Positions 24,702 through 61,958 of a stretch of 64,000 bases of DNA are shown piece by piece. The notes under the pieces were generated by a model. The model saw nothing but the letters and a program-made list of their open reading frames with translations, made no database searches and was not told the DNA's origin. Position numbers and translations under genes: made by a program. Origin of the DNA: Escherichia phage BF17; the sequence record MW822008.1; one strand, written 5' to 3'. Numbering within the stretch: position 1 is the first letter of the stretch; every line of letters begins with the position of its first letter.

Positions 24702-26141
24702 ATGAAAAAATATACAATTGACACAAACGTACTACTATCTGACCCGAATGCATCTATTGCTTTTGATGGTGCTGCAATCATTCTACCATTTACAGTACTG
24801 GAAGAATTGGATTCAATTAAGAGTCGTAATGTAGATGTTTCACGCGATGCTCGTGTTGCTATTCGTAACATTGAAGCAATTATTGCAGATGCATCACATG
24901 ATGAGATTAGTAGTACTGGTGTTAATATTGCTGATGTTCATACCAATATGAATCCTGATAGCAAATTGTTTGTTATTACAAACGAAGAAGCTGAAGCACT
25001 AATTCGTACTAAAGGTTCAGAAGAGAAAGTTCAAACCCTTCTCAAAAGCACAGTACCTGATGATAAAATCATTCTGGTAGCTTTAGCAACAGAATCAGTA
25101 CTGGTAACTCGTGATATCAACATGCGTATCAAAGCACTAAGTTATGGTGTCGAGGTACAAGATTATCGCCATGATATTGTTATTGGTGATAGTGATTTGA
25201 TTCACATTGGTCAACACCATTTGGAAATTAATTTTTGGGAAGTATATAGCAACTTATCCAATACTAATATTCAATCCGAACAAGTTGGTCGTCGTTTGTA
25301 TCATTACATTTCTAAAAGCTTGATTGAACATTTGCTTCCACAAAATCTATGCATCGGTGATTATCTATATGATGATGCAGACGTATTATTTGTGTACGAA
25401 GGTCAATCAGCAATTGAGGAAGATGATGGAACACTAACACCAGAAGATATTTTGGTATTCCAAGATATTGGACAATCAGTAGCTTTACGTGCTAAAGTAT
25501 GGGATATTAAAGCAAAGAATATCCAACAAGCACTCGCCATCAACAGTATTCTCGATCCTGATGTACATCTAACAGTACTGCTAGGTTCTGCTGGTACTGG
25601 TAAAACACTAATTACGATTGCTACTGCATTAGAATTAGTACTGGAAAAACGTAAATACGACCGAATCATCTTCTCTAAAACTCAAGACTCACAGTTTGAA
25701 GATATTGGTTTCTTGCCAGGTTCAGAAGCAGAAAAAGTGATTCCATTCTGTGGAGCCGCAATTGACGCGTTAGAGTTTCTTCATAAAGATGATGCTAACC
25801 CACAAGGTAGTATTGAAGAGATTATGAAACGTAATGTTATTCAATTTAAAGCACTAAACTTTGTACGTGGACGTTCATTCACCAACACTATTCTAGTAGT
25901 TGATGAATTCCAAAACATTACACCTGCACAAGCCAAAACAATCTTGACACGAGCAGGATTAAACTGTAAAGTAGTAATTATGGGTAACTTGAGTCAGATT
26001 GACAGTAAGTTTATTAGTCCTGTTAACAGTGGTTTGACATATGTAACTGAGAAGTTTAAAGATTGGGCAGGTTGTCGTGTCATCGAACTTGAAGGTGTTG
26101 TTCGCTCACCACTAGCTGAATTTGCTGAAGAAAATATGTAA
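24702..26141 (+). CDS. phoH: PIN-domain + PhoH-like ATPase (PhoH2/YlaK type)
   Basis: N-terminal PIN domain (YTIDTNVLL...LEELD). C-terminal P-loop LLGSAGTGKTL and Walker B VVDEFQN. Confidence 0.85.
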   Translation: MKKYTIDTNVLLSDPNASIAFDGAAIILPFTVLEELDSIKSRNVDVSRDARVAIRNIEAIIADASHDEISSTGVNIADVHTNMNPDSKLFVITNEEAEALIRTKGSEEKVQTLLKSTVPDDKIILVALATESVLVTRDINMRIKALSYGVEVQDYRHDIVIGDSDLIHIGQHHLEINFWEVYSNLSNTNIQSEQVGRRLYHYISKSLIEHLLPQNLCIGDYLYDDADVLFVYEGQSAIEEDDGTLTPEDILVFQDIGQSVALRAKVWDIKAKNIQQALAINSILDPDVHLTVLLGSAGTGKTLITIATALELVLEKRKYDRIIFSKTQDSQFEDIGFLPGSEAEKVIPFCGAAIDALEFLHKDDANPQGSIEEIMKRNVIQFKALNFVRGRSFTNTILVVDEFQNITPAQAKTILTRAGLNCKVVIMGNLSQIDSKFISPVNSGLTYVTEKFKDWAGCRVIELEGVVRSPLAEFAEENM

Positions 26142-28406: not shown

Positions 28407-29378
28407 ATGAAAACTAAAATTATTTCTGAACAAAAAATTGGCAATACTACAGTACTGAATCTTGAAGTTCAAGGTCTTAGTAATGTTCGTTCTCTTACGG
28501 TTTGTACTCAGAGAGATGATTTGACTGATTTCTATAGCTCAGAATACATGTCAGAAGAACCTTGGGATATGGGATGGTTGGACGGTAGTAGTTATATCAG
28601 TTCACGTTATAGTTTTGGTTCTCATGAAAATATTGAACAATTAAAAAATGAGTATATTAAACTCAGTGATACTATTGAAATGAAAGAAGAAGATTGTGTA
28701 GAACTTTTCATTTTTGAATTCGATGCCGGAAATGGTAATTCATTACTAGTAAGTAATATTGAAGAACATTTAATGTATCATGAAATTGAAGATGTAGATT
28801 TTGAAAGTATTAAAAATGTTGTTCATATGGTTGGTGGTAGTATTACTGATGATTCAGATATCGGTCATAATATTTCACTGTGCTTAATTTCTCATCCAAA
28901 AACTCGTGGTTTTAAAGTTCCACAAGATGAAACTTACGTGTCTGAAACTGCTGATGAAGGAATTTATCCTTGGAATGATTATGTAGAATACTATGGTCAT
29001 TTCTGTTCTGATACAAAAGAACTGAAAAAAGGCGAACAATATTTTGATATGTTCCGTGCTGCACAGCGTTTAGTACTGAATAATACTGAACTATTTCCTG
29101 ATCGCGGCGAAGAAAATATGATTGATATTATCTTCAAGAACTATGATTATGTACAGAACATTCCTGATAATGTACATTTGGAATATGTTCACAGTTCTTC
29201 AAACAAATTCTATAATATTGAATTGAATGCTCCAGTGTGTGAAGTAATTATTGAGTACGGTGCTATTGGTAAAACCAGTACTACTGATGGTGAAGAATTC
29301 GAAACTATTGAAGAAGCACGTAAGTTCTTCGAGAAGAAAGTAATTTCCAAAATTAAAAGTGGTTATAGCCCAAAATGA
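28407..29378 (+). CDS. protein with a C-terminal WGR domain
   Basis: C-terminus is SSNKFYNIELN...IEYGAIGKTSTTDGEEFETIEEARKFFEKKVISKIKSGY, a WGR-like pattern with YGAIG in place of WGRIG. Confidence 0.6.
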   Translation: MKTKIISEQKIGNTTVLNLEVQGLSNVRSLTVCTQRDDLTDFYSSEYMSEEPWDMGWLDGSSYISSRYSFGSHENIEQLKNEYIKLSDTIEMKEEDCVELFIFEFDAGNGNSLLVSNIEEHLMYHEIEDVDFESIKNVVHMVGGSITDDSDIGHNISLCLISHPKTRGFKVPQDETYVSETADEGIYPWNDYVEYYGHFCSDTKELKKGEQYFDMFRAAQRLVLNNTELFPDRGEENMIDIIFKNYDYVQNIPDNVHLEYVHSSSNKFYNIELNAPVCEVIIEYGAIGKTSTTDGEEFETIEEARKFFEKKVISKIKSGYSPK

Positions 29379-33149: not shown

Positions 33150-33155
33150 TATAAT
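33150..33155 (+). promoter_or_regulatory. -10 hexamer TATAAT of the nrdD promoter (no good -35)
   Basis: Perfect TATAAT. The -35 region is poor, as expected for an activator-dependent class II promoter. Confidence 0.5.
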
Positions 33156-33216
33156 GTTGTCTGGTGATATTAAATATCTTCACCCCCAGATGATTTCAAA
33201 ATACAAGGAATGTACA

Positions 33217-35022
33217 ATGCAATTAGATAAATTATATACTGACGTAACGAATTTCCTCAATCAGAGCAATACTGATCTTACCAACGAAAATGCGAACAAA
33301 GATGCGAAATGCGTCAATACACACAGGGATTTACTTGCAGGTATCCTATCTAAGCATTATTCACAAGATGTTATTCCAAATGAGCTAATGCAGTGGCATA
33401 ATGATGGTTATGGTCATATTCATGATTTAGACTACTATATCAGCCCATTAACCAACTGTTGCTTAGTTAACTACCCAGATATGCTAAAAAATGGATTTAC
33501 CATTGGTTGTGCCAAAATTGAAGAACCAAAGAGTTTTAGTGTAGCATGTACAGTACTGACACAGATTGTACAAGCTGTAGCTAGTTCCCAATACGGCGGT
33601 CAATCGTTGGCTCACATTGATGTCGGTTTAGAACCTTACGTTCAAAAGTCATGGGATAAGCTGTTAGAAAAACAAAAGAAATATAATCTAAGTGATGAGT
33701 TCATTGAAGAAGAATTACGAAAAGAAGTATACGATGGATGTCAAACATTACTTTACCAGACTAATTCAATGATTAGCACTAATGGACAAGCTGCATTCAT
33801 TTCTCTTAGTTTAGGGCTTAATACTTCTAAATTTGGTAAATTAATCACTGAACAGTACTTAAAAGTTCATGAGAATGGTTTAGGTAAAGATAAGATTACT
33901 CCAGTGTTTCCTAAAGTAATTTTCTTTTTACAAGATGGTATAAACATGAATACCAATGATAGTAATTATGACCTTAAACAGTTAGCTATGCGTTGTGCAT
34001 CAAAACGAATCTACCCAGACTTTGTTTCAGTTCCATTAAATCACAAAGTGACGGGAAGTAGTAGTACTGCTGTAACACCGATGGGATGTCGTTCATTCTT
34101 AGGAAAATGGGAAGATTCAAATGGAAATGAACAATACAACGGTCGTTTCAATTTAGGTGTGGTTTCTATCAATTTACCTCTAATTGCTCTTGAGAGTGAT
34201 TCTGATGGAGAGTTTTTTGATAAGATAGACGAGCATATGAATATTGCATATCGTGCTCAGATGAACCGTGTGGAGCGTTTAAAAGGCACTAAAGCGAAGC
34301 AGAATCCAATTTTGTTCATGGAAGGTGCATTAGCACGTTTAGGTGCAGAAGAAACCATTGACAAGCTATTTTACAATGGTTATGCTAGTATTAGTATTGG
34401 TTATGTTGGTCTTGTTGAATGTTCAGAAATCCTCACTGGTTCTATCAGTAAGGAGTTTTGTATGTCAGTACTGAATTATATGAAAGTAAAATGTGATGAG
34501 TTCAAAAAAGAAAGTAATATTGCTTTTAGTCTATATGGAACTCCAGCAGAGTCGCTTTGTTATAAATTTGCACGTTGCATTGAAGCAAAATATCCTTCAG
34601 TACTAAAACGTGATTACATCACAAATTCCTTCCATCAACCAGTATGGGTAGAAAGTTCTCCATTTGATAAATGGAGTTATGAAGAAGGGTTTGCTTACCT
34701 AAGTAACGGTGGAAACATCAGTTATGTTGAATCTCCAAACTTAGCAAACAACATTCAAGCACTTGAAACATTAGTTAACTATGCGTACACTAAGATACCA
34801 TATTTTGGTATTAACCAACCAGTTGACCATTGTTATGAATGTGGCTTCCAGGGTGAGTTCAGTGTAGATAAACATGGTTTCCACTGTCCTGTATGTGATA
34901 ATCGTAATGAGAAGACAATCTCAGTGATTCGTCGTGTTTCTGGGTACTTGGGTAATCCTTCTTCGCGTGGCTTCAATAAAGGCAAGCAACAAGAGTGTTG
35001 TGAGCGTATTCAGCACAAATAA
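33217..35022 (+). CDS. nrdD: anaerobic ribonucleoside-triphosphate reductase
   Basis: NENANKD...RDLLAGI...HIHDLDYY parallels the T4 NrdD N-terminus as I recall it. The C-terminus has the Zn site CxxC...CPVC and the glycyl-radical motif RRVSGYLG. Start moved to ATG 33217 (AAGGA upstream) because track start 33154 overlaps the -10. Confidence 0.9.
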   Translation: MQLDKLYTDVTNFLNQSNTDLTNENANKDAKCVNTHRDLLAGILSKHYSQDVIPNELMQWHNDGYGHIHDLDYYISPLTNCCLVNYPDMLKNGFTIGCAKIEEPKSFSVACTVLTQIVQAVASSQYGGQSLAHIDVGLEPYVQKSWDKLLEKQKKYNLSDEFIEEELRKEVYDGCQTLLYQTNSMISTNGQAAFISLSLGLNTSKFGKLITEQYLKVHENGLGKDKITPVFPKVIFFLQDGINMNTNDSNYDLKQLAMRCASKRIYPDFVSVPLNHKVTGSSSTAVTPMGCRSFLGKWEDSNGNEQYNGRFNLGVVSINLPLIALESDSDGEFFDKIDEHMNIAYRAQMNRVERLKGTKAKQNPILFMEGALARLGAEETIDKLFYNGYASISIGYVGLVECSEILTGSISKEFCMSVLNYMKVKCDEFKKESNIAFSLYGTPAESLCYKFARCIEAKYPSVLKRDYITNSFHQPVWVESSPFDKWSYEEGFAYLSNGGNISYVESPNLANNIQALETLVNYAYTKIPYFGINQPVDHCYECGFQGEFSVDKHGFHCPVCDNRNEKTISVIRRVSGYLGNPSSRGFNKGKQQECCERIQHK

Positions 35023-43593: not shown

Positions 43594-43995
43594 ATGACTA
43601 CAGTTGATGATATCTATAGCACTATACGCAATATGAGTACAGATAGAAAAGTATTTGGCGATAAAGAAAAATCTAAGTGTTATGGTATTGATTCTTTTGA
43701 TATAATTTCTTATGAGTACAATACAAGTGGAAATAGTTCACTGAATATCGTCTGTCCTCGTGACCCAGAAAATAATTTTATGTATGTTGAAATTAATAAT
43801 GATGGAATGTTTTTTACAAAAGTTTTCAAAGGTGGAATTAATTACGAACCTATTGAATGTATGAATGAAGAAACTTTCTTTCAAGAAGATACAATTATCA
43901 ATTTAGGTTTTAGTTTTGATGATTATAAAACATTAGAACATGACTTTAATCGTTATTATAATGGTTTCTTAAAGGAGTTAACAATTTATCTATGA
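43594..43995 (+). CDS. hypothetical protein
   Basis: ORF track. Confidence 0.6.
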   Translation: MTTVDDIYSTIRNMSTDRKVFGDKEKSKCYGIDSFDIISYEYNTSGNSSLNIVCPRDPENNFMYVEINNDGMFFTKVFKGGINYEPIECMNEETFFQEDTIINLGFSFDDYKTLEHDFNRYYNGFLKELTIYL

Positions 43996-45224
43996 ATAAC
44001 CAATATATTGAACAAACAATAGTGAAACACTTGGCTGGGTCACAAGCCTACGGAACCAGTACACCGGAAAGTGATACTGATTATCGTGGTATTTTTCTTG
44101 CTAATAAAGAATTTATTCTTACACCCTTCTATAAGGTCAAAGAGGTAGCTGACAAAAGCGAAGAAGATACTAAATTCTATGAGTTGAATCAGTATTTAAA
44201 ATTATACACTGAAGCTAACCCTAATATTCTTGAATCACTTTGGGTTGAACCTGAACACATTGTGGAAAGTACTGAAATTTATGACTATCTTCGTTCATTT
44301 AACCAAAAACTTCTTAGTTCCAAGATTGCATTTTCATACACTGGATATGCATATAATCAGATTAAGCGTATGACAAATCATCACGGTTGGATGGATAAAG
44401 AGCGTATTGCTGAAAAACGATTAAATGAGATTTTAGAAGAACACCCTGTCGATGAGGTTCTTGCGTGGATGTATGATTCATTCCCACAGTATCTTGTTGA
44501 ACGTTTAGATACATCCAACTTACATCCATTTAATGCTAAAAAGATTGATTTTGAAAAATATATGCGTGATACATCATTGCAGTTAGTTTCGAAAAATCCA
44601 TTAAAGCAATATCATTTCGTAAGATTAGTGCATAACTACACTACTGAAAAAATTCTTGATCGTGATTTCAATTTATTGAATTTTAATAATGGTTATGAAC
44701 TAATTCATTACGGAGAAAACATTTTTGCGATTGTTAAGAATCCTAATGAAAGCACTATTAACCATGATGGTTCATTGCGTTATTTTTCAAAAGAACGTAG
44801 TACTGAAGAGTTGAAAACCAAACCAGAACTAATTGTCAAATTTAACGAAAAAGAATATCAGGAAAATAGTGAGAATAGGAAAAGTTATCATAAATGGAAA
44901 GAAAATCGTAATGCCAAACGTGCTATTTTAGAATCACAACACGGATACGATTGTAAACATGCTATGCACACAATCCGACTTTTGAATAGTGCAGAAGAAG
45001 CGTTACAAAGTGGAATTATTCAAGTTAAACGACCAGATGCACAAATGTTGATGGATATTCGTAATGGTAAATGGAAGTATGAAGAAGTATTAGAATATTT
45101 CGATGATAAAGTACAATACATTCGTGATGTTCTATATAAGAAATCAGTACTTCCTAAAAAACCAAACATCAAGTTAGCATCAAAAATTATCATTGATATT
45201 AGAGAAATGCAATGGTATAAGTAA
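43992..45224 (+). CDS. Pol-beta-superfamily nucleotidyltransferase (RlaP-like)
   Basis: N-terminal LAGSQAYGTSTPESDTDYRGIF is the GS...D.D nucleotidyltransferase motif typical of the PF10127-type family. Confidence 0.65.
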   Translation: MNNQYIEQTIVKHLAGSQAYGTSTPESDTDYRGIFLANKEFILTPFYKVKEVADKSEEDTKFYELNQYLKLYTEANPNILESLWVEPEHIVESTEIYDYLRSFNQKLLSSKIAFSYTGYAYNQIKRMTNHHGWMDKERIAEKRLNEILEEHPVDEVLAWMYDSFPQYLVERLDTSNLHPFNAKKIDFEKYMRDTSLQLVSKNPLKQYHFVRLVHNYTTEKILDRDFNLLNFNNGYELIHYGENIFAIVKNPNESTINHDGSLRYFSKERSTEELKTKPELIVKFNEKEYQENSENRKSYHKWKENRNAKRAILESQHGYDCKHAMHTIRLLNSAEEALQSGIIQVKRPDAQMLMDIRNGKWKYEEVLEYFDDKVQYIRDVLYKKSVLPKKPNIKLASKIIIDIREMQWYK

Positions 45225-48721: not shown

Positions 48722-48750
48722 TTGACATAGAAAAAGTAATTATGTATAAT
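48722..48750 (+). promoter_or_regulatory. promoter: TTGACA-N17-TATAAT with a TG extension
   Basis: Consensus hexamers. Predicted start near 48757 lies inside the 5' arm of the terminator at 48752..48782. Confidence 0.65.
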
Positions 48751-48751
48751 C

Positions 48752-48782
48752 AGAGAACTTCATATGGAGTTCTCTTTTTTTT
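48752..48782 (+). terminator. intrinsic terminator
   Basis: AGAGAACT-N8-AGTTCTCT followed by T8. Confidence 0.75.
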
Positions 48783-48795
48783 ATAAGGTGATAAA

Positions 48796-58466: not shown

Positions 58467-58877
58467 ATGATTGAAATGGAAGGAACTCTGGTGTATGATC
58501 CAGATCGTGGCACTATGAAAAAGAAGAAGGACTTCTGGTTAGTACTACAACTTCCATTGCAGTTGGTTCGATACTACCAGTACTTCATCAGAACTAACTT
58601 ACATATTGATATTAAAGACCCACAATGGGGAGCACATGTCAGTATCGTTCGTGGTGAAGTGCCACCAAATCCAGAGTACTGGAAAAAGTACGATGGAATG
58701 AAAGTTAAGATTAAGTTCGATCCTTTCATCGAAGAAGTAAAAGACAATAAGAAACCTGGGTCATTCTTTATCATAGAGTTTGAAGATGATTTCATTGCAC
58801 AAATTCGTGATGAACTTGGTTTAGCATCTAAATATTTCAAATATCACATCACCATTGGTAGAACATACTACGATTAG
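58467..58877 (+). CDS. 2H-phosphoesterase superfamily protein (LigT/cyclic-nucleotide phosphodiesterase-like)
   Basis: Two H-x-[ST]-x motifs with appropriate spacing: GAHVSIVRG and KYHITIGRT. Confidence 0.6.
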   Translation: MIEMEGTLVYDPDRGTMKKKKDFWLVLQLPLQLVRYYQYFIRTNLHIDIKDPQWGAHVSIVRGEVPPNPEYWKKYDGMKVKIKFDPFIEEVKDNKKPGSFFIIEFEDDFIAQIRDELGLASKYFKYHITIGRTYYD

Positions 58878-58900
58878 TGTGGATATTTGGTAAATAGGTC

Positions 58901-58929
58901 TTGATATAACTAAAAAGTATGCTATACTA
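58901..58929 (+). promoter_or_regulatory. promoter: TTGATA-N17-TATACT (endolysin, ~110-nt leader)
   Basis: Hexamers with a 17-bp spacer. Confidence 0.5.
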
Positions 58930-59044
58930 CTTAAATGTTCCAAAGAACAACTGAGTACTGTAGAAAGTCCAATGAGGCTTTTGCAAATGGCCTCTTTGCC
59001 CTCTTTGTGATTGCTCATTGTTAACAACCAACAAAGGAGGCGTT

Positions 59045-59971
59045 TTGAAAAAAGCGAAAAAAGCACTGAAAACTAAAATTGCCATAGGCGTGTTAGTTTC
59101 ATCAGCCCTATTCGCTGCGATTGGATTTTATGGTTTTTCTCAAAGTGATCGTGCATCATCATTAGACGAAAGTCAGGTGCATAATTTAAAACCACAAGTT
59201 ACGCAAATTCAAAAGCAGGAACTACCACAGGTATCAGTACCAAAAGCAGTTCCAAGCAGCGAGAAACATTATACGGTTCAACCTGGAGATAGTTATTATT
59301 CTATTGCACAGAAATTTAAACCTAAAAATGTACAGATTGAAGATTATGTCATTTTGTTGAAGAACATCAACTTAAATGCAACTCTTCATACTTCTCAGGG
59401 TATCTTTATCCCAACAAAAGAGGATTTGAAGAACGTATTGTTACCAGATGTGACTGTACTGTTTGATTATAAAGATCCAGAAATTGTCAATCACATCAAA
59501 GAAGCTGAAGGTTCTATTGAATTTCAGTCCAAGAACAAACGACGTTTACTTGGTGGGAAAGTTGGAGTTCCTTTCCACAATTCTAAATTTCATCCCTATA
59601 AGGACATGAAAGGTAATTATACAATTGGTTATGGGCATTATTTGGGTAAGAAAGATTCTGATGCAATGAAGTACAGAAACGGGATTACCAAAGCACAGGC
59701 CAACAAACTTTTAATGCAAGATATGAAAAGGACTTACGAGGACTTTACACTATTGATGCAGAAGAAAGATGCAGTTAATCTGACAAAAGAACAGCAGCGT
59801 ATCCTGTTTGAAATGTCATACACAATGGGCGTTGATAAGTTGGCAACATTTAACAAACTATGGAAAAGTGTTAAAATGGATAACCCTAAGAAATTCAAGA
59901 AAGAAATCATGAATTCCTTGTGGTATCGCCAAGTTACAAACAGAGCGGATTTGTTGTTAAGCTCACTCTAA
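59045..59971 (+). CDS. endolysin with N-terminal signal-anchor, LysM and GH24 (T4-lysozyme-like) domains
   Basis: TTG at 59045 is 4 nt after AAGGAGG. TM helix IAIGVLVSSALFAAIGFYGF. LysM HYTVQPGDSYYSIAQKF. Catalytic KEAEG and YKDMKGNYTIGYGH. Confidence 0.8.
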   Translation: MKKAKKALKTKIAIGVLVSSALFAAIGFYGFSQSDRASSLDESQVHNLKPQVTQIQKQELPQVSVPKAVPSSEKHYTVQPGDSYYSIAQKFKPKNVQIEDYVILLKNINLNATLHTSQGIFIPTKEDLKNVLLPDVTVLFDYKDPEIVNHIKEAEGSIEFQSKNKRRLLGGKVGVPFHNSKFHPYKDMKGNYTIGYGHYLGKKDSDAMKYRNGITKAQANKLLMQDMKRTYEDFTLLMQKKDAVNLTKEQQRILFEMSYTMGVDKLATFNKLWKSVKMDNPKKFKKEIMNSLWYRQVTNRADLLLSSL

Positions 59972-59986
59972 AAAGGTAGGTAAATT

Positions 59987-60319
59987 ATGCTAAATCTAGT
60001 TATCCAAGGTAATGTTGATATTACTCCAGCAATCAATGACGCAATTCATGCTGAAGCAAATGCACTAACGAAGTTTAGTGATTCTTCAGTACTGCATATT
60101 GGTGTTCATGTGAAGAAAGAGCATAAGAATCAATATTTCGTAACTTTAACATCAGGCGGTAAGAGTGTTACAGCCGATGATGCAGATTTATACAAAGCAA
60201 TTGGTGATTCATTTGAAAAAATGGAAACTGTCTTAGGTAAAGACAAAAGCATCAAATTGTATCGCCGTAACCACCCCGAACATCCAGTTCAAGAAGACTT
60301 GACTGAAGACGAAGAGTAA
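59987..60319 (+). CDS. hpf: ribosome hibernation promoting factor / RaiA family
   Basis: MLNLVIQGNVDITPAINDAIHAE...LYKAIGDSFEKME aligns with E. coli HPF (MQLNITGNNVEITEALREFV...MYAAIDGLIDKL). Confidence 0.8.
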   Translation: MLNLVIQGNVDITPAINDAIHAEANALTKFSDSSVLHIGVHVKKEHKNQYFVTLTSGGKSVTADDADLYKAIGDSFEKMETVLGKDKSIKLYRRNHPEHPVQEDLTEDEE

Positions 60320-60327
60320 GATATAAT
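60299..60327 (+). promoter_or_regulatory. promoter: TTGACT-N17-TATAAT, overlapping the hpf stop
   Basis: Predicted start near 60334 lies inside the 5' arm of the terminator at 60331..60358. Confidence 0.55.
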
Positions 60328-60330
60328 AAA

Positions 60331-60358
60331 GGGACAGAGATTATTCTGTCCCTTTTCT
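60331..60358 (+). terminator. intrinsic terminator after hpf
   Basis: GGGACAGA-GATTAT-TCTGTCCC followed by TTTTCTT. Confidence 0.7.
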
Positions 60359-60373
60359 TATGGAGTTTTAATT

Positions 60374-60790
60374 ATGAATTATGTTTGGGCAGATGTAGTA
60401 AAATCTCTCGTATCAACACATGATGTTGATTTACCAGATAGTCTGGTATTTAACAGATGGTACTATCCAAACCCAGAGGACTGTAACGTTGGAATTGGAT
60501 TTTTTATTAATGATAAATCTAATTTGTTTGGATTAATTGAAGATGAGACAAAATCCAACCTTATATTCTCGATTGAGTTGAATGCTGATCACATAAAATA
60601 CTACACCAATAAAATGGACGAAGACGATGGAGATGTTATAATCCCAGCAGAAATAGACGAAGCTTCATTTTTTCAGTTATCATTGATTTATGATCTATCT
60701 AACATTACTTATGATAATGTGAAAGACCTTTTTATATTGTACAATAAAATGTATAATTACTTTTTAAGACCTTTTTATATTGTACAATAA
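60374..60790 (+). CDS. hypothetical protein; C-terminus altered by a 43-bp tandem duplication
   Basis: GGAG upstream. The last 7 codons (RPFYIVQ) come from the second repeat copy read out of frame. Confidence 0.6.
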   Translation: MNYVWADVVKSLVSTHDVDLPDSLVFNRWYYPNPEDCNVGIGFFINDKSNLFGLIEDETKSNLIFSIELNADHIKYYTNKMDEDDGDVIIPAEIDEASFFQLSLIYDLSNITYDNVKDLFILYNKMYNYFLRPFYIVQ

Positions 60791-60809
60791 AATGTATAAT
60801 TACTTTTTA
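60724..60809 (+). repeat. perfect 2 x 43-bp tandem duplication
   Basis: AGACCTTTTTATATTGTACAATAAAATGTATAATTACTTTTTA occurs at 60724..60766 and again at 60767..60809. Each copy carries TGTATAAT. Confidence 0.95.
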
Positions 60810-60825
60810 TAACAGAGGAATTGTA

Positions 60826-61011
60826 ATGGAATATACCATATGTGTAATTGTATGTATCATAGCCTTACTCGCAGGAGTTGGTGTGATGATTTACTGTGAT
60901 GCGGAACCAAGTACTGAAGTAGGTACAACCATCACACTTAAACCTGGTGTTAAAATTAATGATACCTATTGCTACAATCCAAACACAAACCGCTATGAGA
61001 TTTGTTTATGA
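60826..61011 (+). CDS. small membrane protein
   Basis: GAGGA upstream. Helix ICVIVCIIALLAGVGVMIY. Confidence 0.6.
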   Translation: MEYTICVIVCIIALLAGVGVMIYCDAEPSTEVGTTITLKPGVKINDTYCYNPNTNRYEICL

Positions 61012-61415
61012 GAACATTCAACATTGATTATATAATTGATTCGATTGCAGAACATATGAAAAACATAAGTAAAAACGAGCCTGGTTTTTACTTCAACTTA
61101 GATAAACTCCATCGCAATACCAATGTATCTAGTTTTAATCGTGCTAAGAAACTTTACATCCGTATACATAACCTTTGGTACAGTGACGATACGTTGATGA
61201 TAGATATTACTGTTGATGAAGACATAACATTAAGATACATTGACGATTTTAAATCAGATGATATTCGTGCTGGATCATTACCAATTGATGCTTCATATGA
61301 AGAATATCTGCAATACCAGTTCATTGATGACACATTTGGATTTGACTTTGATCTATATAATAGTATAATGAACGTATACCATATATACGAAAGGAATTTG
61401 AATGGACATTCGTAA
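61008..61415 (+). CDS. hypothetical protein, paralog of 61402
   Basis: ATGA overlap at 61008. QFIDDTFGFDFDLYNSIMNVYHIYERNL parallels MFIDDTFSIDYPSFQCILAIHKKYYDRL. Confidence 0.6.
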   Translation: MRTFNIDYIIDSIAEHMKNISKNEPGFYFNLDKLHRNTNVSSFNRAKKLYIRIHNLWYSDDTLMIDITVDEDITLRYIDDFKSDDIRAGSLPIDASYEEYLQYQFIDDTFGFDFDLYNSIMNVYHIYERNLNGHS

Positions 61416-61824
61416 AATACCAAATTTCCACAGTACATTAAGGTTCTTTTCTGAACAAGAAATCAGTACTGAAAGACGTGGCTTGATTTCATACAATCAT
61501 CATCGTGTTATGTACACTAATCATTTCCAGGGTACAGTTCGTATTAAATTTCGTAATGCACTCGACGACAATGATGAATTGTTAATTTTACTACGAAAAA
61601 GTAAGATAGAATTGACATACGCAACTCACCATATTGAAAGTGAGTTGATGTGGCACACACTATCAAAAAAAGAAGGGTCATTACCAGTTGATGATAATGG
61701 ACCAGAAACACTTGATCAGTACATGTTCATTGATGATACATTTAGTATTGACTATCCATCATTTCAGTGTATACTAGCTATACATAAAAAATATTACGAC
61801 CGTCTACGTGACAGATTAATTTAA
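61402..61824 (+). CDS. hypothetical protein, paralog of 61008
   Basis: See the 61008 entry. Confidence 0.6.
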   Translation: MDIRKIPNFHSTLRFFSEQEISTERRGLISYNHHRVMYTNHFQGTVRIKFRNALDDNDELLILLRKSKIELTYATHHIESELMWHTLSKKEGSLPVDDNGPETLDQYMFIDDTFSIDYPSFQCILAIHKKYYDRLRDRLI

Positions 61825-61835
61825 TTGGAGGCATT

Positions 61836-61958
61836 ATGATTGCTATGTTAGAAGAAGATTGGGGTGTTTCCGAGCAAGGCACTGATGAATATGAATACCC
61901 AGAATATAAGCCTAAAGGCTTTTGGGAACGTTTGCGTGATTGGTTGATGGGGGAATAA
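61836..61958 (+). CDS. small acidic peptide (40 aa, below the track cutoff)
   Basis: My own translation: MIAMLEEDWGVSEQGTDEYEYPEYKPKGFWERLRDWLMGE. GGAGG upstream. Confidence 0.45.
   Translation: MIAMLEEDWGVSEQGTDEYEYPEYKPKGFWERLRDWLMGE

Follow-up and report, generated by a model that had tools for sequence, protein, structure and literature searches.

Does a large virulent phage carry a protein that manages the ribosomes of its host? The question is raised by a 110-aa open reading frame of Escherichia phage BF17 (record MW822008.1). It lies in a 64,000-nucleotide stretch of DNA, termed the window here, and a preliminary description of that stretch had read it as a short ribosome hibernation promoting factor (HPF). 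The reading favored here, to which a probability of roughly 55% is given, is that jumbo enterobacterial myophages have long carried a lineage-specific member of the HPF/RaiA family (RaiA is also termed YfiA or protein Y). This protein would act as a RaiA-like factor in the decoding cleft of the 30S subunit, giving silent, protected 70S ribosomes and not 100S dimers. If this is true, a working phage hibernation factor would mean that the management exerted by large virulent phages extends beyond the supply of tRNA and nucleotides to the state of host ribosomes. This would bear on the infection of starved or dormant cells and on resistance to translation-targeting defenses. The points added by the present analysis are the RaiA/YfiA-like layout of the product, purifying selection on its gene, a fixed gene order, a conserved cassette at the 3′ end of the gene and the absence of RMF from phage records.

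Identity of the Gene and Its Product

The gene and its ribosome-binding signal are located as follows.

59987 to 60319, plus strand: gene of the HPF/RaiA (Ribosomal_S30AE) family, 110 aa, from ATG to TAA
59973 to 59981, plus strand: Shine-Dalgarno-like sequence of this gene, AAGGTAGGT, read directly from the sequence

The open reading frame is a real gene of the HPF/RaiA family, as had been proposed, and an above-threshold Pfam match, the predicted fold and the structural neighbors agree on this. The product matches Pfam PF02482 (Ribosomal_S30AE) with 41 bits, compared to a gathering score of 23.7 (E = 3.2e-10), and residues 8–87 fall on positions 5–84 of the 88-position profile. This match is far beyond chance. 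No second Pfam domain was found in the 110-aa product. In a phmmer search of the PDB, the best match is a 183-aa HPF (9t0z_9, E = 7e-8), and other matches include the HPFs of T. thermophilus (6e-5) and E. coli (0.03). No RaiA chain in the PDB was matched at E ≤ 1.

The AF2 model contains the elements of the HPF fold, namely a strand at residues 2–8, a helix at 14–30, strands at 36–46, 49–56 and 59–65, and a second helix at 68–85. When this model was compared with the PDB by Foldseek, the best 36 matches were all HPF, RaiA or pY chains, with E values down to 1e-6 and TM scores of about 0.6–0.76. In the model, a core domain (residues 1 to ~90) is followed by a disordered tail (residues 90–110) with DLTEDEE at its end, and at its C-terminus the product reads ...HPVQEDLTEDEE. 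The acidic C-terminal extension that had been described is present, with ~20 residues and a charge of -7.

Family membership does not extend to the narrower equivalog models. NCBIfam TIGR00741 (HPF/YfiA equivalog) gives 32.2 bits, under its cut-off of 40.9, and NF007780 (short HPF equivalog) gives 18.8 bits, under its cut-off of 125. The HPFs of the Asteriusvirus clade have a PHROG of their own, phrog_34864. Membership of the product in the HPF/RaiA (S30AE) family is secure, as judged from its profile match and modeled fold.

Previously Known Phage HPFs

The observation of an HPF in this phage is correct but already known, since orthologues are annotated and phage HPFs were published in 2019. 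The novelty implied by the preliminary description does not survive, as an HPF/RaiA annotation is already present in RefSeq and in several GenBank records. In RefSeq (121Q, PBECO4) the orthologue is termed “HPF/RaiA family ribosome-associated protein”, and other records use “ribosome-associated inhibitor A” or “ribosome hibernation promoting factor”. The label “Sigma-54 modulation protein”, found in several records, is a historical misnomer of the HPF family and was set aside. The genome paper of phage Sharanji counts the orthologue among translation factors (PMC11895373).

Mizuno et al. 2019 described HPF genes in rV5-like phages as well as in the jumbo phage GAP32 and suggested that host factors might face competition from viral HPF (PMC6375957). 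When the rV5 HPF was expressed in E. coli, it was not found in purified 70S or 100S ribosomes and the levels of 100S were unchanged, in an experiment that used stringent salt washes (PMC6375957). The rV5 HPF is the only phage HPF homologue with a published ribosome-association experiment, and the searchable literature yielded no expression or binding experiments on HPFs of the Asteriusvirus clade.

The HPFs of rV5-like phages (Vequintavirinae) are also S30AE proteins of large virulent E. coli myophages, labeled HPF or “sigma 54 modulation”. However, they are host-like, with ~43% identity to E. coli HPF, whereas the Asteriusvirus clade appears as a deep, phage-specific branch, and the negative ribosome-association result concerns the rV5 lineage only. 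With E. coli HPF as the query, tblastn returned about 130 phage records, mostly rV5-like, and the Asteriusvirus clade is not among the matches listed. The GAP32 HPF, in turn, is not among the phage-record matches of the Asteriusvirus HPF and its relatives. Because the Asteriusvirus clade appears deep, phage-specific and RaiA-like, evolves under purifying selection and sits in a fixed gene order, it should be a better experimental candidate than the rV5 type with its negative result.

Lineage, Selection, and Gene Order

With Escherichia phage vB_Ec-M-J the region shares 98.4% identity, and with ~35 other Asteriusvirus myophages of E. coli and Salmonella (~350–380 kb), 121Q and PBECO4 among them, it shares 80–97%. 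By these matches, the window belongs to an Asteriusvirus-type lytic jumbo E. coli myophage. The earlier assumption of a virulent phage holds up, given the match to Asteriusvirus records and the description of one Asteriusvirus relative, fEgEco12, as strictly lytic in its paper.

In a word-indexed search of 5.8 billion proteins, the 13 clusters obtained all came from the phage clade. Relatives beyond this clade were reached not through the word index but through a full HMMER scan with the clade profile, which gave 59 matches at E ≤ 1e-3 among 1.84 billion representatives. The nearest outgroups (P0015–P0018 and P0020) are proteins of 103–116 aa with 25–35% identity, located on contigs of 78–351 kb. 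Matching proteins occur in Salmonella phages Munch, 7t3 and SE_PL and in Klebsiella phage fENko-Kae01, under the label “ribosome-associated inhibitor”. All clade and outgroup proteins terminate with a hydrophobic residue, T or V, and an acidic run. Judged from these searches, the Asteriusvirus HPF clade is a deep, phage-specific, long-branch subfamily. One further candidate relative, a 1605-aa Diplonema “kinesin” with 29 repeats (P0014), was treated as a low-complexity artifact.

The HPF gene evolves under purifying selection. Among eight phages, its dN/dS (Nei-Gojobori) is 0.12–0.27 in unsaturated pairs, slightly more relaxed than the 0.09–0.26 of the lysozyme gene. Moreover, the gene has a constant setting, with a kept order of 2H phosphoesterase, (a 190-aa ORF), lysozyme, HPF, (small ORFs), CCA-adding enzyme, NUDIX, glutaredoxin and a T4 gp13-like neck protein. 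This order is seen in 121Q, in Erwinia phage Hallingskeid (46% HPF identity) and in two metagenomic jumbo-phage contigs (28–35%), and an RNA ligase lies upstream in two of the genomes that share it. Conservation of the order at 28–46% HPF identity indicates that the HPF is old in the lineage and vertically inherited, with no recent capture from a host.

Four Salmonella “SD” records of Asteriusvirus deviate in having an HPF gene that is internally deleted or reduced mainly to its 3′ part, for example at 2499–2651 in Salmonella phage SD-1_S14 (L011) and 2501–2725 in SD-15_S21 (L012). In these records the lysozyme gene is also split into fragments. The shortened copies are probably a problem of assembly quality rather than biology, and they were set aside as evidence of dispensability because the adjoining lysozyme gene is fragmented too.

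A recombination signal, seen as mosaic divergence, is present at 59045–60319 in comparison with three relatives (L001, L009 and L010). Against Ecwhy_1, dS is 0.12 for HPF and 0.51 for lysozyme, and the pattern is reversed against 121Q and SP27 (0.7–1.0 for HPF, 0.44 for lysozyme). These opposite patterns point to recombination between lineages inside the 1.3-kb lysozyme-HPF unit.

Comparison with RaiA, Short HPF, and Long HPF

The sequences of E. coli RaiA and HPF were checked against PDB chains, to which both proved identical, and were then aligned with the phage proteins (alignment A2). The product had been said to align along its length with bacterial short HPF. This is so for residues ~3–88, but nothing corresponds to the final ~20 residues in the E. 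coli protein (YhbH, 95 aa), which ends with helix 2 and has no tail. Identification of the product as a short HPF is not upheld: it has 110 aa with a 20-aa tail, scores 18.8 instead of 125 with NF007780, and has a core equidistant from HPF and RaiA.

E. coli RaiA, at 113 aa, is near the phage product in length, and the stretch beyond helix 2 is built alike in both proteins: an RR pair is followed by ~10 residues, these by a hydrophobic residue and V or T, and the last element is an acidic run. The run is NFVEEVEEE in RaiA and DLTEDEE in the phage product. The RaiA tail is disordered in cryo-EM maps, as is the phage tail in the AF2 model. RaiA and the phage product also share several basic residues of helix 2, an aromatic residue at position 30 and T53. 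They differ in that R83 of RaiA corresponds to T81 in the phage product, and R17, R23 and K26 correspond to N17, E23 and A26. The regional charge resembles that of both E. coli proteins, with +2 in helix 2 of all three and a tail of -7 compared to -5 in RaiA.

The cores do not separate the two families. In hhalign comparisons, the RaiA core has ~30% identity to the phage product (score 36, probability 84.9%), while the core of short HPF, which has the same fold, has 30% identity (score 43, probability 93.7%) and is marginally better. Assignment to RaiA or HPF by profile comparison was therefore rejected, the core being equidistant at ~30% identity to each. This means that only the tail layout tells the two apart, and since short HPF stops at helix 2 while RaiA and the phage product share the tail pattern, the layout is of the RaiA type. 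The phage product is thus described by its sequence as RaiA-like in layout, and RaiA orthology is not claimed. Acidic tails are common in members of the HPF/RaiA family with 105–125 aa, so the likeness of the tail to that of RaiA may be convergent. In the host protein, the end of the YfiA tail has never been resolved but points toward the RMF site (2025 cryo-EM preprint, bioRxiv 10.1101/2025.10.07.680626).

The long HPFs of Firmicutes and Thermus (~180–190 aa) provide the best PDB sequence matches of the phage product through their N-terminal domains. Their C-terminal dimerization domain is absent from the phage product, which ends at residue 110. Short HPF, on the other hand, is an RMF-dependent 100S factor, and its partner RMF is not encoded by any phage record: a search of 50,697 phage records with a verified RMF query sequence found no homologue.

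Ribosome-Contact Positions

In structures of HPF and YfiA, the ribosome is contacted by the β-sheet face, the aromatic residue 30, Thr53 and the basic residues 80, 83, 87, 89/91 and 93/95 of helix 2, and Arg83 contacts m4Cm1402 (bioRxiv 10.1101/2025.10.07.680626). Many of these positions have counterparts in the phage product (alignment A2). K80, K87, K89 and R95/R96 correspond to K78, K85, K87 and R93/R94, and in addition Y/W30 corresponds to F30, T53 to T53 and I40 to V40. Most of these kept counterparts are invariant in the phage clade. Three others are lost, with R83 replaced by T81, K91 by I89 (with K90 adjacent) and K93 by L91. At the Arg83 counterpart, no clade member and none of the P0015–P0020 relatives has Arg, and one clade member has Lys.

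Conservation within the clade is 0.82 at contact-mapped positions compared to 0.81 at other core positions (permutation p = 0.43). The contact-mapped positions are thus not preferentially conserved, which gives support neither way. The clade has an invariant motif, VHVKKEHKxQ, in the β2-β3 hairpin, and its most conserved segment is the tail. Taken from sequence, canonical ribosome binding by the phage HPF is plausible.

The Probable Lysozyme-HPF Transcription Unit

The HPF gene appears to be the second gene of a two-gene unit with the following features.

58901 to 58928, plus strand: sigma-70-like promoter TTGATA-16-TATACT with TG before the -10, 10/12 matches in a consensus scan
58935 to 59044, plus strand: conserved 5′ leader of the lysozyme gene, with a hairpin (58974–58979/58989–58994) and a helix between 58998–59008 and the Shine-Dalgarno region at 59032–59041
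59045 to 59971, plus strand: lysozyme gene with LysM and Phage_lysozyme domains (Pfam PF00959, E = 2.4e-11) and an N-terminal hydrophobic segment
60299 to 60327, plus strand: sigma-70-like promoter TTGACT-17-TATAAT, 11/12 consensus matches
60328 to 60361, plus strand: intrinsic-terminator-like hairpin with T-run, an 11-bp stem (60328–60338/60345–60355) and the loop GATTAT

Transcription of the lysozyme-HPF unit probably begins at the first promoter, and a promoter-like site is present at the equivalent position in most relatives. The ORF listing begins the lysozyme gene at 59018, while a TTG start at 59045 behind AAAGGAGG fits the 308-aa orthologues. The gene is a probable endolysin, based on its domains, and its orthologues are annotated lysozyme or endolysin in relatives. 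In phAPEC6, one of two predicted lysozymes (Gp293) was undetected in virions. The HPF gene directly follows this gene, as had been stated, with the lysozyme stop codon 15 nt before the HPF ATG and no terminator between the two genes.

The lysozyme leader is better conserved than the adjoining coding sequences, and its core, AAAGTCC..GAGGCTTT, does not vary among 9 loci, some of them from phages with 28–46% HPF identity. The leader structure predicted by RNAalifold has 3 compensated pairs. In this model the leader looks like a device that masks the lysozyme start from translation. The arrangement is presumably reminiscent of that of T4 gene e. A scan of 58800–60450 with Rfam gave no family, even at E ≤ 1. 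The leader motif GTAGAAAGTCCAA was also considered as a repeated phage promoter and was rejected, having one exact copy and near matches at chance level.

At the other end of the unit, the nested promoter and terminator that had been reported are present, with the promoter at 60299–60327 and the hairpin at 60328–60355 followed by a T-run. The -35 hexamer of the promoter coincides with codons Leu105-Thr106 of HPF and the -10 lies just past the stop codon. In relatives that have Leu at this position it is always encoded by TTG, and the DNA probably places a constraint of its own on the Leu-Thr pair. A promoter of this type is kept in Asteriusvirus relatives, in Erwinia phage Hallingskeid and in a metagenomic contig (L002). 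In another, distant locus (L004) the promoter lies wholly 3′ of the HPF stop codon and the protein still ends in IVEDDE. The acidic end is thus kept without an embedded promoter, which argues that it belongs to the protein itself.

The hairpin has a folding energy of -17.6 kcal/mol (z = -5.4, RNA fold) and is directly followed by the run TTTTCTT. Its stem is kept in other lineages with different sequences, and it would end the lysozyme-HPF unit. Given the spacing that usually follows a -10, transcription from the promoter at 60299 would start inside the 5′ arm of the hairpin. With such a start, the hairpin could stop the lysozyme-HPF transcript and not the transcripts initiated at the promoter.

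The cassette may resemble the PeSL cassettes of T4-type phages, which combine a promoter with a stem-loop. The likeness lies in a near-consensus sigma-70 promoter adjoining a T-run stem-loop between genes, and the difference is that the -35 hexamer of the HPF cassette is embedded in coding sequence. Across the window (1–64000), strong sigma-70-like sites, defined by at least 5/6 matches in each hexamer, number 41 on the plus strand and 13 on the minus strand, many of them with 17-nt spacers. Two promoters in the window are directly followed by a perfect hairpin and T-run (48722–48790 and 60299–60361), and the one at 48722 matches the consensus at 12/12 positions.

Proposed Function and Alternatives

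In the proposed mechanism, the HPF would be produced as the second gene of the lysozyme-HPF unit, between a sigma-70-like promoter and an intrinsic terminator. Its folded core (residues 1 to ~90) would dock in the cleft of the host 30S subunit between head and body, where it would lie over the places of tRNA and mRNA in the A and P sites. Contacts would be made by the β-sheet face, F30, T53 and the basic track of helix 2 and its extension (K78, K85, K87, K90, R93 and R94). The disordered tail of ~20 residues, ending in DLTEDEE, would be arranged like that of E. coli RaiA, which runs to the RMF site. By homology to a RaiA-type mechanism, the expected products are vacant, silent, nuclease-protected 70S monosomes and not RMF-dependent 100S dimers. 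That the protein binds ribosomes, at which site, how it affects 70S and 100S, when it is expressed and what the phage gains from it are all inferred here.

The same binding site could serve an opposite end, although this is doubtful. If binding were weak and reversible, the phage protein could be an anti-hibernation placeholder that outcompetes host HPF, RMF and RaiA, and the ribosomes of starved or stressed hosts would stay as easily reactivated 70S, on which phage mRNAs are translated. The lost counterpart of Arg83 and the lost basic residues of helix 1 fit weaker binding, the tail is laid out as in RaiA, where it points to the RMF site, and phage records contain no RMF. The idea was raised by Mizuno et al. 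2019 (PMC6375957), and an IF3 homologue, reported in the relative Sharanji, could help to clear the factor. However, any occupant of the A and P sites would also block translation while bound. It is likewise unlikely that the S30AE fold has been neofunctionalized, binding some other phage or host RNA or protein with no action on the decoding center. The absence of rV5 HPF from ribosomes would agree with such a change, but that protein belongs to a different HPF lineage and was examined after stringent salt washes (PMC6375957). The scores under the NCBIfam equivalog cut-offs, the loss of the Arg83 counterpart and the lack of preferential conservation at contact positions also point this way, whereas F30, T53 and a large part of the basic track on helix 2 are kept and the structural neighbors are all ribosome-bound factors. 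The clade's own VHVKKEHKxQ motif and its highly conserved tail could reflect a new role, yet the embedded promoter explains part of the tail conservation.

That promoter also suggests a reading in which the ORF has no protein function and is kept solely as a carrier of the promoter/terminator cassette. The -35 in codons 105–106, the invariable TTG for Leu and the four Salmonella phage records that retain mainly the 3′ part of the gene would fit. This is nevertheless very improbable, as dN/dS across the whole gene is 0.12–0.27, the fold and many core residues are kept down to 28% identity, and in L004 the gene and its acidic tail persist with the promoter outside the gene. The shortened records, moreover, have a fragmented lysozyme gene too, suggesting poor assemblies. 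The RaiA-like factor in the 30S cleft remains the preferred reading. A further reading is speculative and rather improbable: the HPF would be part of a conserved jumbo-phage module for translation maintenance, together with RNA ligase, 2H phosphoesterase, RlaP, CCA-adding enzyme, NUDIX and, elsewhere, IF3. In such a module it might shield the 16S decoding center and 3′ end from abortive-infection nucleases by which the host targets ribosomes, or hold 70S for selective release by a phage factor onto phage mRNAs. The leader that sequesters the Shine-Dalgarno sequence would let HPF be made from the transcript common to both genes while lysozyme is held back.

Neighboring Genes in the Window

Several genes of the window are related to RNA. 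An RlaP-type RNA-repair nucleotidyltransferase is encoded at 43992–45224, and its presence gives the HPF neighborhood a flavor of RNA maintenance. A 2H-SAK phosphoesterase at 58467–58877 has a weak Pfam match, below threshold. A CCA-adding tRNA nucleotidyltransferase is encoded at 61960–63075, followed by an ORF (63182–63595) at the position of the annotated NUDIX hydrolase of relatives. No tRNA genes were found in the 64-kb window. Upstream, on the same strand, are a PIN-PhoH fusion (24702–26141) and an anaerobic ribonucleotide reductase, NrdD (33154–35022), and a WGR-domain protein is encoded at 28407–29378. Between the HPF and CCA-enzyme genes lies a block of small ORFs (60374–61958), which is missing in the distant locus L004 and variable among Asteriusvirus. 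Within this block, the ORFs at 61002–61415 and 61402–61824 are tandem paralogues with 43% identity over 42 aa (E = 5e-9).
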